Shown here: positions 9,665 to 16,357 of the stretch, piece after piece
How the letters are laid out: each line of letters opens with the position of its first letter
Position numbering within the stretch: position 1 is the first letter of the stretch
Assembly (NCBI GenBank): GCA_963664115.2
Contig: CAXWPJ010000008.1
Location: 1-49,273, forward strand
Reading direction: 5' to 3'
Length of the DNA: 49,273 nt
Source: Terriglobia bacterium
GTDB lineage: Bacteria > Acidobacteriota > Terriglobia > 20CM-2-55-15
Position numbers and translations under genes: made by a program
The notes under the pieces: generated by a model
What the model saw: the letters and a program-made list of their open reading frames with translations, nothing else
What the model was told of the DNA's origin: nothing
The model's database searches: none

Positions 9665-10021
9665 GTGAAGGTGCACATACCCGGGCCCCTGCGATCCTAC
9701 ACCGCGGGCTTGCGCGTGGTTGAAGTCAAGGGAGAGACCCTAGCCGACCTGTTCCTTTCTCTGGATGACGCTTTCCCCGGTCTTCGGTTCCGGATTGTTG
9801 ACGAGCAAGACCGAATCCGGGAACACATCAAGATATTCGTCGACTCGGAACAACATAAAGAACTGTCCTTCACCGTGAACCCTCGCTCCGAGGTTCAGAT
9901 CGTCTGTGCGTTGAGTGGGGGACTCGACTGCGTCCATGGTCGAATAGCACCAATCATGAGCTGCTATAGTCAACGTTCATGTGTGGCCGATACACCGCCT
10001 CTGCAGCGCAAGCAGTCATAG
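9665..10021 (+). CDS. MoaD/ThiS ubiquitin-like protein with 32-aa extension after the GG motif
   Basis: VHIPGPLRSYT..FPGLRFRIVDEQDRIREHIKIFVD..ALSGG; GG ends at 9922 but the frame stays open to 10021; start may be GTG 9644 or 9665. Confidence 0.8.
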   Translation: MKVHIPGPLRSYTAGLRVVEVKGETLADLFLSLDDAFPGLRFRIVDEQDRIREHIKIFVDSEQHKELSFTVNPRSEVQIVCALSGGLDCVHGRIAPIMSCYSQRSCVADTPPLQRKQS

Positions 10022-10620
10022 AGGACTACTTCGGCGCTGAATTTTCTGAAACCCACATTCCGTCCTACAACGCCAGCCCGGGTCAGCACCTTCCGGCTAT
10101 TCTCGACACAGAGCCCGGAAAGATTGTCTCTGTGTTGTGGGGGATAAAGCCGTCCTGGGGGAAACATCCGAGCCGCCTCCTGATAAACGCGCGATCAGAG
10201 ACTGTCAACCAACGCCCGACGTTTCGGCAGTCTTTCCAGAAGCGCAGATGCCTGATTGTTGCTGACGGATTTTACGAGTGGCAGTCCACGAAAGACGGTA
10301 AGCAGCCGTTCAGGATAATGCTGAAGACTGGGGAGCCCTTTGCATTTGCCGGTATCTGGAAAGAATTCGACGGTCTGCCTGCCTACGTGATCCTGACCAC
10401 GGAGGCCAACCGTGTGATGCGGACTATCCATGAGCGGATGCCGGTCATCTTAGAGCGTGGGCAACTGGTGACCTGGCTCGATACTGACCTGCCGGAGGGC
10501 GATGCTCTGGATTTGCTGTGTCCCTATCCCGAGGACGCGATCACTGCTTACCCGGTCTCCCGGGCCGTGAACAGTTCGAAGAACCAGTCTTCGGATTTGA
10601 TCGAACCTCAGAGTTCCTGA
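9979..10620 (+). CDS. SOS response-associated peptidase (SRAP/YedK/HMCES family)
   Basis: MCGRY N-terminus, YNASP, INARSET, RCLIVADGFYEW, IHERMPVIL. Confidence 0.95.
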   Translation: MCGRYTASAAQAVIEDYFGAEFSETHIPSYNASPGQHLPAILDTEPGKIVSVLWGIKPSWGKHPSRLLINARSETVNQRPTFRQSFQKRRCLIVADGFYEWQSTKDGKQPFRIMLKTGEPFAFAGIWKEFDGLPAYVILTTEANRVMRTIHERMPVILERGQLVTWLDTDLPEGDALDLLCPYPEDAITAYPVSRAVNSSKNQSSDLIEPQSS

Positions 10621-10649
10621 TGATCTTCAGAGCCATCGCTCCTTAAATT

Positions 10650-11068
10650 GGATTGCAGTAGTGATAAAGTCTTATAAGCCACTGCAATCCGGTGCATGCT
10701 GGCGGGAACTCACGAAATCCATCGCCTCCAGAGGTAGGGCAGTATTGTGAAGTTGATCATGACCACTGCGATCCAAATCTTGCTAGAGGTAATATCGTGA
10801 TTACACTACTGCGATCCGAGCCTGAATAACACCGGATCAAAAATACCAGCGCCATCGTTAGATCGCAGTAGTAAATCATTAGAAATAACTACTGCGGTTC
10901 ATGTCGTGCTAGATCCTAGTTTATAAATTTCGCTACTGCAAATCGAGGTACTCTGATTCTGACCCACGAATGGATGGCCTCCCGTCGGACCACGGTAGTA
11001 TATTATTATTATCGAATACTGCATTTCAGACCATGCTAGAGCTTAGACGTGAAATTAACTACTGATCC
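10650..11068. repeat. Array of seven ~31-bp boxes in a ~127-bp higher-order tandem repeat
   Basis: ACTGC/ACTGA right arms at 10681, 10765, 10808, 10891, 10935, 11018, 11061; left arms GCAGT/GCTAG/ACGGT 26 bp upstream (27 in box 5). Confidence 0.85.
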
Positions 11069-11849
11069 GACCAAGAGGACACCAGATCTCGGGCTCGTCT
11101 TTTGCACTCCTGCGGGCGTCAAGAACGTCGAGATCAAGAACGAAGTGATCGTCGGAGAGTGGACGGATGAAGACCTTTTACTGACGCACCAATTCGAAAG
11201 AAGAGGAGTGATCGCAGAGGAGTTTGTCAGTTGTTCGAGCGATCCAGAACGCGTTGCCGAGTTTACAAAGAAGTACGGCCCTTTGTTTTTCGAGGAGAAA
11301 CCGAATTGGGTCCGAGAATATTTTGGAGCCACCTACACGGCTTTCTTTGAACGGATCAAGCCCTTGCGAGGGGTCGCTCTTTCCGATACTGCTGAGGTGG
11401 ATCGGCAGTTTCCAGATCGGCAAAAACCCTTCGAAGTCGATATAAGGGAATGGCTCTCGGCCCAAACCGGTTTTCGGAATACCTGGAGCGTCATCAGTGC
11501 ATGGCCGAAAGGCAGAGAGAAAGCCATGCCTATCATCGGAACGCTTCCGGGTGAGGAATTTCGTTTAGTCGATGGGCAACTCACATTTCGAACCGCAGAC
11601 CTTCACCGCTTCTTGCTTTTGGATCTGTTTTCAGTTGCTAGTGAACGCATACGAGTCTGCAGACGCACTGACTGCGACAAAGTTCCCTATTTCATCGCCG
11701 CCCACCTTGGACAGTGGTATTGCTCAAGAATGTGCTCCGACTGGGCACAGCGCGAACATCGGAGGAAGTGGTGGGCGAAAAACGGCAAGGAAATGCGCGA
11801 GCGGCAGAACCTAGCAAAGAAGAAAAAAATAAAACAGACCAGGGGTTAG
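11049..11849 (+). CDS. Hypothetical protein with C-terminal CGNR-like C4 zinc finger and basic tail (putative DNA-binding)
   Basis: C-x4-C-x15-C-x3-C then Arg/Lys-rich helix; FTKKYGPL motif; GTG start uncertain. Confidence 0.7.
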   Translation: MKLTTDPTKRTPDLGLVFCTPAGVKNVEIKNEVIVGEWTDEDLLLTHQFERRGVIAEEFVSCSSDPERVAEFTKKYGPLFFEEKPNWVREYFGATYTAFFERIKPLRGVALSDTAEVDRQFPDRQKPFEVDIREWLSAQTGFRNTWSVISAWPKGREKAMPIIGTLPGEEFRLVDGQLTFRTADLHRFLLLDLFSVASERIRVCRRTDCDKVPYFIAAHLGQWYCSRMCSDWAQREHRRKWWAKNGKEMRERQNLAKKKKIKQTRG

Positions 11850-11858
11850 GAACTAAGG

Positions 11859-11951
11859 GACGGAGACCTAATTCAATATGACCTCATCTGGTGAGATCCC
11901 TTACGCGGTGACAGCCCCGAATTTGGTCTCCGTCATCTATACCTCGTCCCC
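11859..11951. repeat. REP-like GGGGAC/GACGGAGACC palindromic element
   Basis: GACGGAGACCTAATTC (11859-11874) pairs with GAATTTGGTCTCCGTC (11919-11934); related arms at 12840-12871 and 17773-17797. Confidence 0.7.
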
Positions 11952-11960
11952 TGACTCCGG

Positions 11961-12818
11961 TTATTCCATTGACCGGGTTAATTCCGCGTAAATTCCCTGT
12001 GGCCCCTGGCCGCCGCGTCCGGAAAGATCCCAGCCCAAGTCTTCACTCTCGAGACTGATGAGGAATTCATCTGACGACATACCTTGAGAAATTAGTTCTC
12101 TCGCGCGCGTTTCGAGAGCGGCAAACTTGTTTCGAAACACCCGGACTTCGTCTTTGGTCAGCAGTGCGCCGTGTCCCGGAATGGCTGTAACGAAGTCCAG
12201 TTCCAGCATGCTGTCGAGCGTGTCCACCCATTCCACGAAGCTTCCACCGTTATTGAAGTCGATGAAGATGTTTCCTGTGTTGAGTAGATCGCCTCCGTGG
12301 ATGACTCGGAGGTCGGGGAAGTAAATGACCGAATCGCCATTGGTGTGACCGCGGCCCATGTGGTGTGCCTGGACTTCCACGTCACCGACAAAAACGGCGG
12401 TCTCATTGGAAAAGATGATCGACGGTGGACCGGTCTGACTGTTTCTCAGGATGTTGGCCCGCACGTTCTTGTGTGCGATCACCGGTGCATTGCCGGCGAA
12501 CTGGGCGTTGCTGCCGGTGTGGTCGCCATGGTGGTGCGTGTTCAGGACATATTTGACCGGTTCATCCGTGACACTTCGGATGTTGGTCATGATTTCGTCG
12601 TAGTTCCGTTCGAACTTGTCATCGATAACGATGACACCGTCGCCGGTGACGCGGACACCGATGTTACCTCCGGGTCCTGTGATCATGTACAGGCCGTCAA
12701 CGACTTCAGTGATGGCAAGCGGCGGTTGGGCTTGCTGCGCTTGAGTAAACGCAGTCACTGTGGCGGCGCCTACACCGACCAAGGCCGCCAGGGCGATAAC
12801 CAGAATCTTGTTACGCAT
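11961..12818 (-). CDS. Secreted MBL-fold metallo-hydrolase (cyclase-like)
   Basis: NTHHHGDHTG, GHTNGD, GDL, IPGHG; ATG 12818 after GGAGG. Confidence 0.88.
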   Translation of the reverse strand: MRNKILVIALAALVGVGAATVTAFTQAQQAQPPLAITEVVDGLYMITGPGGNIGVRVTGDGVIVIDDKFERNYDEIMTNIRSVTDEPVKYVLNTHHHGDHTGSNAQFAGNAPVIAHKNVRANILRNSQTGPPSIIFSNETAVFVGDVEVQAHHMGRGHTNGDSVIYFPDLRVIHGGDLLNTGNIFIDFNNGGSFVEWVDTLDSMLELDFVTAIPGHGALLTKDEVRVFRNKFAALETRARELISQGMSSDEFLISLESEDLGWDLSGRGGQGPQGIYAELTRSME

Positions 12819-12839
12819 CGACTGATCCTCCAACGATTA

Positions 12840-12871
12840 GGGGACTTAGTTAAGTGACGGAGACCGAATTC
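12840..12871. repeat. REP-like arm, inverted copy of 11919-11951
   Basis: GGGGAC-N9-TGACGGAGACCGAATTC versus reverse complement of 11919-11951, GGGGAC-N10-TGACGGAGACCAAATTC. Confidence 0.65.
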
Positions 12872-13351: not shown

Positions 13352-14508
13352 CTAGTGTACCCCGCTCGAAGTAATGTAACTAAAATAGCTTTCCAACGTC
13401 CAATAGAGAATGAGGAAAGCACCGACCATTGAATTGGATGACAAGCAGCGGATGGAGTTGGAGCGACTGAGTCGAAGCCGGAGTACATCGGTCCGGTTGG
13501 CGGAACGATCCCGAATTGTATTACTGGCCGCTGAAGGTCGGAACAATTATGAGATCGCCGCCCGCTTGGAGATCACGCGCCAGAAAGCGGGCCGCTGGCG
13601 CAATCGTTTTGTGGAACAGGGCTTGGCTGGGATCGAAAAGGATGCGCCGCGAAGCGGACGGATTCCCACGATCAGTCGCCGGAAGCGAGCCCGGATCGTC
13701 AAGAAGACACTGGAAGAGAAGCCCCCGAACGCGACGCACTGGAGTCGGGCCTCGATGGCGAAGGCCGTTGGCGTGAGCGAGTCCACGGTCGGGAAAATCT
13801 GGCGGGTCCATGGACTGAAGCCTCATCTGTCACGAACCTTCAAACTATCCAACGACAAACGATTCGCCGAAAAGCTGGAGGATGTGGTCGGTCTGTATCT
13901 GAGCCCACCGGAAAACGCCATTGTCTTGTCCTGCGATGAGAAGAGCCAGATGCAGGCCCTGGACCGCACGCAACCCGGGTTACCTCTGAAGAAGGGGCGG
14001 TGTGGCACCATGACCCACGATTACAAACGTAACGGGACAACCACGCTTTTCGCCGCGCTCAACATCCTGGACGGTTCGGTCATCGGAACCTGCATGCCAA
14101 AGCATCGCCATCAGGAATGGATCCGGTTTCTGAATCAGATCAAACGCGCCATGCCGAAAGATAAGGAGATCCACATTATTTGCGACAACTATGCGACTCA
14201 CAAACATCAGAAAGTCGTCAACTGGCTCAAGCGTAACAAGCGTTTTCATGTGCACTTCACGCCAACCAGTGCGTCGTGGCTCAACATGGTCGAGCGCTTT
14301 TTCCGGGATCTGTCCGAGCAACGACTCCGGCGTGGCGTTTTCCGCTCGGTCCCCGAGTTGATCCAGGCCGTGGAGGACTACCTCGCTCGTCACAATGAAG
14401 ACCCGAAACCCTTCATCTGGACTGCAACGGCTTCCGACATCCTTGCTAAAGTCCAGCGCGGCCGGCGAAATCTTGATAAGTTACAGTCTGTTTAACGGGG
14501 ACCACTAG
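13352..14508 (+). mobile_element. IS630-family insertion sequence
   Basis: Imperfect TIRs CTAGTG..CCCG..TGTAACT at both ends, CTAG (TA) target, intact transposase. Confidence 0.9.
13410..14495 (+). CDS. IS630 family transposase
   Basis: HTH N-terminus; DEKSQMQAL, THDYKRNGT, DNYATHK, SWLNMVER DDE motifs. Confidence 0.96.
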   Translation: MRKAPTIELDDKQRMELERLSRSRSTSVRLAERSRIVLLAAEGRNNYEIAARLEITRQKAGRWRNRFVEQGLAGIEKDAPRSGRIPTISRRKRARIVKKTLEEKPPNATHWSRASMAKAVGVSESTVGKIWRVHGLKPHLSRTFKLSNDKRFAEKLEDVVGLYLSPPENAIVLSCDEKSQMQALDRTQPGLPLKKGRCGTMTHDYKRNGTTTLFAALNILDGSVIGTCMPKHRHQEWIRFLNQIKRAMPKDKEIHIICDNYATHKHQKVVNWLKRNKRFHVHFTPTSASWLNMVERFFRDLSEQRLRRGVFRSVPELIQAVEDYLARHNEDPKPFIWTATASDILAKVQRGRRNLDKLQSV

Positions 14509-16357
14509 TCCCTGAACAAGCGTGATTGACGAGGAAATGATAGTGCAATAAGAGCGGAAGTACCCGAAATGCCCCCTCTCCGTGCGAAAAAAACCTTGAA
14601 CAGATTCTTCGGAAAAGGAGGCATTTCAGATGAACGATTATACGCGCAAGAACATGAGGAACCGCAAGCGGCGAATCGAACGTCGGCTTGGGGACCGGCA
14701 TTGGACGGATCAGGTAGAGCCGATGTTTTCGGCGAGCAACATTCAGTACGAGATGGGAGAGCGGACGCGGGGCACATCGGTTGGTGGTATCGGGACGATG
14801 CAACTGGTGGCGCGGCGGACCGGGCTGATCGAAGCCATCGACAAGGGCGTGCATGTGTTGAAGCGGCACCTGCCGTATCACGAGTCGGATCACGTGCTGA
14901 ACATCGCCTACAACGCCTTGAGCGGAGGAACGTGCCTGGAAGACATCGAACTGCGGCGCAACGATGCGGTGTATCTGGATGCGCTGGGAGCGCAACGGAT
15001 TCCGGATCCGACGACGGCGGGAGACTTCTGCCGGAGATTCGAGGCCGACGACGTGGAGTGTCTGATGGAGGCAACCAATCAAGTCCGGCTCGGAGTCTGG
15101 CGACAGCAACCGGCGGCGTTTTTCGAAGAAGCGGTGTTGGACGCGGACGGGACACTGGCCGAAACCACGGGGGAATGCAAGCAAGGGATGGACGTGGCCT
15201 ACGACGGGACGTGGGGATATCACCCGCTGATGATCTCGCTGGCCAACACCGCCGAACCGCTGTATCTGGTCAATCGTAGCGGCAACCGGCCGTCGCATGA
15301 AGGAGCCGCGGTCCGGTTCGACCAAGCCATCGCATTGTGCCGGCATGCGGGGTTTCGCCAGATCCTGCTGCGCGGGGACACGGACTTCAGCCAGACCCGG
15401 CATCTGGACGGATGGGACGACCAGCAGGTGGGTTTCATATTCGGGATTGACGCGATGGCGAACCTGAAGGCCCGGGCCGATGAACTGGAGCCGCGCCAGT
15501 GGAAGCGCCTGGAACGGCCCGCGAAATACGACGTGGCGACCGAACCGCGCCAACGTCCCGACAACGTGAAGGAAGAGATCGTTCGGCAGCGCGGTTTCGA
15601 CAATATCCGCTTGCAGGGTGAGGATGTGGCCGAGTTTCGGTATCGACCCGGAGCCTGCGATCGGGACTACCGTGTCGTCGTGGTGCGGAAGAATCTGTCG
15701 GTGGCCAAAGGAGAGCAGGTGTTGTTTGACGACATCCGGTACTTCTTCTACATTACCAACCGTTCGGATCCGGCCGACCAGATTGTGATGCGTGCCAATC
15801 AACGGTGCAATCAGGAGAATCTCATTGAGCAGTTGAAGAACGGCGTTCAGGCGTTGCGGATGCCGGTCGGAGATCAGACCAGCAACTGGGCCTACATGGT
15901 GATCGCGTCACTGGCCTGGACACTGAAAGCGTGGTTTGCATTGCTGCTTCCCGAAACCGGACGTTGGGGCCAAAAATATCAGGCTGAGAAGCAAACCGTG
16001 CTGCGCATGGAGTTCAAAACCTTCTTGAACGCTTTCATGCTTGTGCCGTGCCAACTCGTGCGCACCGGGCGGCGCATTCTGTTCCGGATCCTGGCCTGGA
16101 ACCGGTGGTTGCCGGTCTTGTTCCGCGGGGTGGATGTGTTGCGTCAGCCTCTGCGATGTTGACCCGATCATGACTCTGAGCCCGGGCGATCGAGGTCCCG
16201 GTTTCTGTCAACCGTCCAACACCAGCGAGGCTGAACTGAAACAGATTCAACAGAAACTCGATACCTGGAACAGGCCATCCGGGAACGGGATTCTATGCCT
16301 CGAATTCTATCGGCGCGAACTGGGCCTCGGCGGACTGGTTATGCGCTTGTTTTGGGA
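14509..16357 (+). mobile_element. IS1380-family insertion sequence
   Basis: TIRs TCCCTGAACAAGCG / CGCTTGTTTTGGGA flanked by CTAG on both sides. Confidence 0.88.
14630..16162 (+). CDS. IS1380 family transposase
   Basis: IPDPTTAGDFCRRF, LDADGT, GYHPL, LRGDTDF, RCNQENLIEQLK motifs; GGAGG RBS. Confidence 0.92.
   Translation: MNDYTRKNMRNRKRRIERRLGDRHWTDQVEPMFSASNIQYEMGERTRGTSVGGIGTMQLVARRTGLIEAIDKGVHVLKRHLPYHESDHVLNIAYNALSGGTCLEDIELRRNDAVYLDALGAQRIPDPTTAGDFCRRFEADDVECLMEATNQVRLGVWRQQPAAFFEEAVLDADGTLAETTGECKQGMDVAYDGTWGYHPLMISLANTAEPLYLVNRSGNRPSHEGAAVRFDQAIALCRHAGFRQILLRGDTDFSQTRHLDGWDDQQVGFIFGIDAMANLKARADELEPRQWKRLERPAKYDVATEPRQRPDNVKEEIVRQRGFDNIRLQGEDVAEFRYRPGACDRDYRVVVVRKNLSVAKGEQVLFDDIRYFFYITNRSDPADQIVMRANQRCNQENLIEQLKNGVQALRMPVGDQTSNWAYMVIASLAWTLKAWFALLLPETGRWGQKYQAEKQTVLRMEFKTFLNAFMLVPCQLVRTGRRILFRILAWNRWLPVLFRGVDVLRQPLRC

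Follow-up and report, generated by a model that had tools for sequence, protein, structure and literature searches.

The 49,273-bp window analysed here, contig C8 of a 4.89-Mb genome of the class Terriglobia (Acidobacteriota; G000), carries an array of seven AT-rich boxes that leads into the start of a gene for a zinc-finger protein. We consider it probable that these boxes are DNA operators of the adjacent protein, acting as a dimer, and that this protein is a repressor that was captured from a mobile, integrative element.

The seven-box array and its insertion site

An initial annotation of this sequence had described seven boxes, regular right-arm spacings, 12-nt linkers and differing AT-rich cores, and all of these were borne out. 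The boxes lie at the positions given in Table 1, with right-arm ACTG starting at 10681, 10765, 10808, 10891, 10935, 11018 and 11061 and thus spaced by 84, 43, 83, 44, 83 and 43 bp; all three short linkers measure 12 nt and fit the consensus proposed for them, the long linkers measure 53, 52 and 52 nt, and the cores (each box minus 8 bp at either end) are 60–87% AT. Other parts of the description held only in part. The array had been placed between genes, which is true of boxes 1–6 but not of box 7, which contains the GTG start at 11049; the boxes themselves stand, but the 5-bp arms assigned to them are too short, the half-site being approximately ACTACTGCRRTCC; and the three ~127-bp units exist as boxes 2+3, 4+5 and 6+7, but box 1 lies outside them as a single copy. 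On the opposite strand, each of the three GCTAG left arms reads TCTAGCA, which is the half-site seen most often in the protein's wider family.

Table 1. Features of the array and its surroundings, with positions in the window
Feature	Position	Strand	Description
SRAP gene	9979..10620	+	Pfam PF02586 (E 1e-62); flanks the cassette on the left; synteny kept in congeners G004 and G001
Box 1	10655..10685		31-bp dyad, both arms ACTGC-type; 10-bp perfect inverted repeat including flanks
Long linker 1	10686..10738		53 nt; weak similarity to long linker 3 (p 0.0085, one of 10 comparisons)
Box 2	10739..10769		31-bp dyad, ACTGC-type arms
Short linker 1	10770..10781		12 nt
Box 3	10782..10812		Hybrid: left, family-wide TCTAGC half-site (minus strand); right, ACTACTGC
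Long linker 2	10813..10864		52 nt; by eye alone, resembles the 5' coding end of the gene
Box 4	10865..10895		31-bp dyad, perfect 8-bp arms, which match the single box of locus L008
Short linker 2	10896..10907		12 nt
Box 5	10908..10939		Hybrid, 32 bp
Long linker 3	10940..10991		52 nt
Box 6	10992..11022		31-bp dyad, left arm degenerate, core very AT-rich; candidate promoter region
Short linker 3	11023..11034		12 nt
Box 7	11035..11065		Hybrid; covers GTG start; codons 4-6 of the zinc-finger gene form the right arm
ABATE/CGNR-like zinc-finger protein	11049..11849	+	266 aa; C204, C209, C225, C229; basic helix 227-265
Inverted-repeat hairpin element	11859..11934		Right edge of the cassette; directly after SRAP in G004
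Metallo-beta-lactamase-fold gene	11961..12833	-	Pfam PF00753; convergent, flanks the cassette on the right; synteny kept in G004 and G001

The array is beyond chance and unique within the genome. Nine YACTGC half-sites fall within its 420 bp, and the best other stretch of the genome holds six. Scored with a matrix trained on the boxes, the array boxes reach 28.7–37.3 and the best candidate operator elsewhere in the genome 19.3; no second array with the window's arms was found. In the other 34 genomes of the order, the strict box pattern has a single match, which lies in coding sequence. The same pattern reversed gave 54 matches in those 34 genomes, which probably reflects base composition. A look-alike at C2:66142-66275 was rejected as coding DNA with GC-rich cores; the stretch around this chance match (C2:65900-66450) is a two-gene unit beside tRNA-like sequence, which resembles a RelE-type toxin-antitoxin pair.

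The boxes had also been thought to share one face of the helix, a phasing that is not established, there being only two independent spacings (43–44 and 83–84 bp); by our own arithmetic, two spacings would both come to lie 2 bp or less from a multiple of 10.5 with a chance of ~0.15. In relatives, too, the phase of the next half-site, 25–38 bp on, is not fixed. As the lengths of boxes and linkers are conserved, spacing probably matters. The 127-bp period points to a triplication of the promoter region long ago, for which linker similarity is marginal (p = 0.0085 and 0.021, among 10 comparisons). Homology of long linker 2 to the 5' end of the gene was set aside, as it was not significant (p = 0.09). 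A CCATCGC(C)TCC-like motif is common to 10602-10654, 10686-10738 and 10940-10991, where it lies 14–16 nt before three boxes; its minus strand resembles the ribosome-binding site before the excisionase gene at related loci such as L115 and L116, and it may be a relic of a divergent gene start.

A scan for promoters and terminators stayed at chance level, with one weak minus-strand promoter match (in box 6) and no terminator between SRAP and the zinc-finger gene; SRAP is a possible source of read-through into the array. The TGCTAGA arm may act as an extended -10 or be a kept promoter element, a weak case because a -35 element precedes only two of the 16 dyads found in the family. No ribosome-binding site is evident at the 11049 start, which is therefore probably leaderless.

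In two congeners, G004 and G001, the SRAP gene is followed within ~120 bp by the metallo-hydrolase gene, with no cassette between them, and the zinc-finger gene is absent from all four congeners. The hairpin element follows the zinc-finger gene in the window and directly follows SRAP in G004, and so marks the right edge of the cassette. Because two congeners lack both array and gene at this site, the two are most simply read as an insertion of ~1.25 kb (~10621-11856) between SRAP and the hairpin; loss of the cassette in the congeners is a possible alternative. Hairpin elements of this type also occur near position 12856 of the window and on contig C18 of G004 (~289980-290075), with GACGGAGACC arms around a variable inside of 50–70 nt; there are 24 such arms genome-wide, with one close pair only, and G000 and G004 have the inside in opposite orientations. 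The element resembles a REP or MITE. Further along the window, at 13410-16162, lie two adjoining transposase genes (DDE_3 with an HTH, and DDE_Tnp_1_4). Pieces at least 99% alike to the window occur in a run labelled sponge metagenome.

The zinc-finger protein, its relatives and their upstream sites

The window protein has no Pfam match at E 0.01 and none in NCBIfam, and in PHROGs it matches one weak unknown family. Relatives number 740 at E 0.001; among the 125 aligned, 35 match zf-CGNR weakly (best E 1e-5), and neither these 125 nor the window protein match ABATE in Pfam. The predicted structure (pLDDT 84.8) has four conserved cysteines, which are invariant in alignment A2, and a 39-residue basic helix. 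Its top and sole whole-domain structural match is 3h0n (Jann_2411; Z 7.4, rmsd 4.2, 142 aligned), the others being single-helix matches with Z of at most 5.1, and a Z below 8 can denote a common arrangement. Foldseek places 3h0n at rank 1 with an E of only 0.17, and a sequence search of the PDB gives it an E of 0.015, ranked below other small zinc fingers. With a fold match present and a Pfam match absent, we class the protein as ABATE/CGNR-like and not as a member of ABATE/CGNR (DUF1470).

A homodimer is predicted with a score of 0.46 (best control 0.01), with contact agreement of at least 33% and pLDDT of at least 69 in the runs, the mark used being reached by 20 of 30 solved homodimers and by 1 of 23 single chains. 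The predicted interface consists of the second beta-hairpin and the following helix (residues 159-180 and 191-198) and fits the solved 3h0n dimer, so that the pass may come from this likeness. The window protein and Jann_2411 have in common a two-part fold with a C-terminal four-cysteine finger and a basic helix, and the predicted interface matches the dimer described in the accessible part of the 2009 structure paper (PMC2954205). DNA binding by ABATE/CGNR proteins was proposed there, and the same part of the paper gives no DNA site, with binding proposed only (PMC2954205). In contrast to Jann_2411, to which it is 10% identical, the window protein has an extra N-terminal hairpin and no match to PF07336 or PF11706; its family is linked to integrases of Acidobacteriota elements instead of to stress or transport genes, and a candidate operator is visible for it.

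The family profile finds matches in 61 of 400 other genomes of the class, in 27 of 133 genomes of one family and in 3 of 400 in a phylum-wide draw, with no other member within G000. A tyrosine integrase (PF00589) lies directly downstream in 43 of 60 distinct related loci (two duplicates dropped; 52 followed by an ORF of 95 aa or more, of which 50 were scanned), and often overlaps the zinc-finger stop codon. All 11 divergent ORFs match HTH_17, a partly circular result because these ORFs had been chosen by an HTH-like filter. The gene order in relatives is often an excisionase-like gene back-to-back with the zinc-finger gene, followed by the integrase, and by analogy the zinc-finger gene would occupy the slot of an immunity repressor. 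In lambda (CI), SaPI (Stl) and ICEBs1 (ImmR), the repressor gene lies by the integrase gene and back-to-back with an excisionase-like gene; dyad operators overlie the start of the repressor gene itself, and specificity groups are set apart by their recognition helix and operator.

A viral collection searched with the window protein and with alignments A4, A5 and A6 yielded no relative, a GTDB scan with A4 none, and annotated phages and plasmids no match. The box pattern occurs in at least 120 stretches of the viral collection (80 with full flanks), and at the inclusion threshold none of those listed has a homolog of the zinc finger; some 80 of the 120 (among L128-L247) share one conserved element with the window's 8-bp arms, a GC-rich core and no zinc-finger gene nearby. 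Two matches of the unit pattern in that collection, both coding, were judged to be chance. One relative (L073, at G373:C96) lies in a 545-codon open frame, directly followed by a gene that presumably encodes ribosomal protein L24.

Upstream of homologs, similar boxes recur, with the same geometry at the gene start: 29–33 bp, short inverted arms and an AT-rich core. Among the 53 loci whose protein carries a WW-type helix, 16 have a 29–33-bp CTAG dyad with an AT-rich core upstream (200 shuffles gave a mean of 0.25 and a maximum of 2); the strict dyad is absent in 37, and two TCTAG sites are absent in 18. A further half-site follows 25–38 bp on in 13 of the 16 dyad loci, often in the first codons. 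Locus L008 has, at 2417-2448, a single 32-bp box with the window's own arms just before the start codon, and its protein is 40% identical to that of the window, with the same W-A-Q-x-E-H-R helix. L008 is an orphan after an apparent amidase gene; its contig ends inside the zinc-finger gene, so a downstream integrase is possible there. A fourth motif marks L023 (G399:C47), in which seven ATCAAG half-sites surround the start of the zinc-finger relative (oriented positions 980-1165), two of them forming a 32-bp dyad and tandem copies lying inside the reading frame. An integrase lies further on at L023, on the opposite strand.

The half-sites differ by helix type. TCTAG occurs at least twice in 35 of 53 WW loci and in none of six NVR loci, ATTAC in six of six NVR and six of 53 WW loci, and YACTGC in two of two EHR, two of six NVR and five of 53 WW loci (eight loci were dropped from these counts). 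ACTACTGC is present at the window and at L008, both with the W-A-Q-x-E-H-R helix, a link between site and helix drawn from these two loci only. The sister of L008, L009, has one TCTAG and one TACTG in the 147 bp upstream and is the closest complete element, linked to an integrase. In a quick tree the NVR loci form one clade, so that Fisher p-values for motif against helix overstate the association, and the EHR loci fall within the TCTAG relatives, next to L009. The arm sequence appears to change with the C-terminal helix of the protein, in about three independent switches, a number that gives no statistical proof.

The genome also holds a relic integrase (C9:519117-519614), the C-terminal half of a gene and 78% identical to the L009 integrase, from which it follows that such elements visited this lineage; it lacks the N-terminal half and a zinc-finger gene, and is followed by another integrase-like gene start. 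A copy of the window's second transposase (DDE_Tnp_1_4) lies near this relic. Elsewhere, at C7:19600-21300, we observed by eye an apparently intact end of an integrated element beside tRNA-like sequence, with genes in one direction for an excisionase-like protein, a small HTH protein and a 370-aa integrase; the HTH protein is in the slot held by the zinc finger in relatives.

Conservation between strains and competing explanations

A sister strain, ~92–95% identical to the window, was available from four runs of four studies, and in all of them the seven boxes keep their order and length. Counting changes fixed in all four runs, the arms of boxes 1–5 have 0 at 80 positions, the cores of these boxes 15 at 76, the linkers 14 at 193, and boxes 6–7 have 0 at 62 (Fisher p = 9e-6 for arms against cores and 0.007 for cores against linkers); for the left part of box 1 these counts rely on the loose-end table, and they include as fixed a change in box 4 whose placement varies by run. 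Two changes were seen in single runs, both at the last arm base, and would bring the arms to 2 of 80 if counted. Box 1 has four fixed changes in its core and none in its arms, box 5 has five and no fixed arm change, and box 6 is unchanged in the four runs; in box 4 the core has gained one base and lost one in four of four runs, with the length of 31 bp kept. The changes cluster in the central ten positions of the cores.

The cores change about as fast as SRAP does at synonymous sites (at least 0.13), and the rates may be read as neutral cores with constrained linkers or as fast cores. The zinc-finger gene differs by only ~3%, so that the invariance of boxes 6–7 may reflect a lower divergence of this tract. 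Arm-specific conservation, proposed at the outset from the single sequence, is thus seen between strains, the arms being kept while the cores change, and the uniform neutral decay that had been named as its opposite is not.

These data bear on four other explanations. We regard it as quite unlikely that the cassette is a decoy, in which the array would soak up the repressors of incoming or resident elements, including those of TCTAGC type via the hybrid boxes, and so upset their switch, while the zinc-finger gene guards the array. The three TCTAGCA left arms, which carry the half-site repeated in 35 of the WW loci and are unchanged in the four runs, are consistent with such a role, as is the number of boxes, which exceeds that at other loci (only L023 also has a seven-copy 6-mer upstream). 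However, no box has TCTAGC on both sides, so that a TCTAGC-type dimer would get half-sites only, G000 is without another member of this family, and the TGCTAGA arms could be a kept promoter element.

It is very unlikely that the boxes are bound by another protein, be it the arm domain of an integrase, an excisionase or a host regulator, with the zinc-finger gene a regulated passenger. That the zinc finger binds is something we infer, and its relatives adjoin integrase and HTH_17 genes, either product of which could bind, their sequences sharing the history of the zinc-finger gene. Yet the boxes are intact at both orphan loci, the window and L008, without an integrase or excisionase, and a host regulator should have more sites than one array, whereas no other site in the genome scores near the boxes on which the matrix was trained.

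The initial annotation had offered guide-like hairpins as an option, which we find highly improbable. The array would be transcribed and cut to ~43-nt units, the variable cores of which guide the zinc-finger protein to AT-rich targets, as in TIGR systems. The cores do differ mutually and change about three times faster than the linkers, mostly in those central positions, the strand fold has a z of -2.8, and one metatranscriptome contig extends over 10729-10873. Against this, the cores stay in register, with point changes near the SRAP synonymous rate and no gain, loss or exchange; three of the seven boxes lack complementary arms, so that no hairpin is possible; in relatives a single box overlaps the start, and box 7 lies in coding sequence. 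Inverted repeats would by themselves yield such a fold z, the contig of the RNA run (X20, share 0.08) may stem from DNA, the cores match nowhere else in the genome at up to one mismatch, and Rfam gave no match (mir-785 only, at 20 bits against a cut-off of 62).

TIGR-Tas loci, as described in the accessible text of the source (PMC12045711), likewise combine one small gene with an array of conserved short motifs and variable inserts; their unit has two 8–12-nt spacers between box C and D motifs and gives 36-nt RNAs, with a Nop-domain protein (PMC12045711). The window differs in having one 15–16-nt core per box that drifts in place, and in relatives with single boxes. A Nop domain gave no Pfam match and is absent among the structure matches listed, which point to 3h0n, and the protein may still belong to a family outside these listings. 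The array is not a CRISPR either, as had been noted from the sequence: the arms are only ~8 bp long, the same seven cores are in register in four runs, Rfam gave no match, and no Cas family was found among the 37 window ORFs scanned.

Finally, a neutral relic, in which the promoter region was triplicated long ago and all but boxes 6–7 has fallen out of use and decays, is scarcely credible and largely refuted, for although the 127-bp period, the weak linker similarity and the lack of change in boxes 6–7 while cores 1–5 drift would suit it, the arms of boxes 1–5 are kept where the cores are not, the compensating indel in box 4 keeps its length, and linkers have diverged nearly beyond recognition with arms still alike, so that duplication may explain the origin of the array but not its upkeep.

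Proposed regulation by a captured repressor

Among the options raised initially, an operator array is the one favoured by the box geometry of the family, by the arm sequence that tracks the protein clade and by the conservation of arms between strains; centromere, origin or recombination sites find no support, as no such genes adjoin the array. We propose that one long basic helix of the dimer would read each outer half-site of the 31-bp box (~23 bp apart), the AT-rich middle going unread. Within the elements of origin, the protein would hold down two targets, the promoter of the divergent excisionase gene and the repressor-integrase operon to which it belongs. In the window, from which excisionase and integrase would have been lost, box 7 over the start codon would give negative autoregulation, and boxes 1–6, between the SRAP stop and the gene, would serve as roadblocks to read-through, no terminator having been found there, and as a sink that buffers free repressor. 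A low, steady level of repressor would silence incoming elements with the same operator, and the host probably retains the cassette for this immunity to related elements, of the kind proposed for LRRHood (PMC3029335). No cognate element or live target was found in the genome or in the viral, phage and plasmid collections, nor another operator in the genome, so that this benefit would be one without an observed target.

In its logic, the proposed switch resembles those of CI and Stl. The integrase and divergent excisionase neighbours of such a switch are present in the relatives and absent in the window, where SRAP and the metallo-hydrolase gene take their place, and dyads lie at the repressor's own start at box 7, at L008 and in the 16 WW loci. 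Unlike CI, Stl and ImmR, the family has a zinc finger with a long helix instead of a helix-turn-helix, and 29–33-bp dyads with a long core that would go unread; in the window, moreover, the element is gone and the boxes have multiplied to seven. The stoperators of mycobacteriophages are a further likeness, having many repressor sites, proposed to block elongation, and helix residues that correlate with the site sequence, as far as the accessible text of that work describes them (PMC3029335). By the same text, these are asymmetric 13-bp sites, genome-wide, in one orientation and bound by an HTH, and in LRRHood an insertion of ~1.4 kb, for which a role in immunity is proposed, carries a repressor gene by itself, without sites (PMC3029335). 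In the window, by contrast, the dyads are clustered and carried with the gene in a bacterial chromosome, where none elsewhere scores alike.

A single specificity does not account for the three left arms of TCTAGC type, which may be an ancestral promoter element that was kept or may draw off other repressors as a decoy. A broader reading, which we hold to be unlikely, is that ABATE/CGNR-like fingers are a class of immunity repressors of Acidobacteriota elements, with a code of at least four groups between helix and half-site, captured here as a defence cassette of two specificities. The orphan repressor would then silence its own group, and the seven-box array, through the commonest foreign half-site in its hybrid boxes, would trap the repressors of other groups.

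The regulatory logic of a repressor with its operators is already known. What appears to be new are the helix-site groups and this fold in the repressor slot, together with an orphan copy that has a seven-box array; a search of titles and abstracts, with few subscription papers covered, found no operator or element-repressor role for ABATE/CGNR proteins. The locus and its relatives offer a concrete site and natural specificity groups for a little-studied protein fold. If the operator reading is true, a fold other than the helix-turn-helix would fill the slot of CI in a widespread family of Acidobacteriota elements, and the pairs of helix and site would be usable as orthogonal repressor parts. 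The orphan cassette, in turn, would be a case of a chromosome that keeps a captured repressor together with its multiplied operator.
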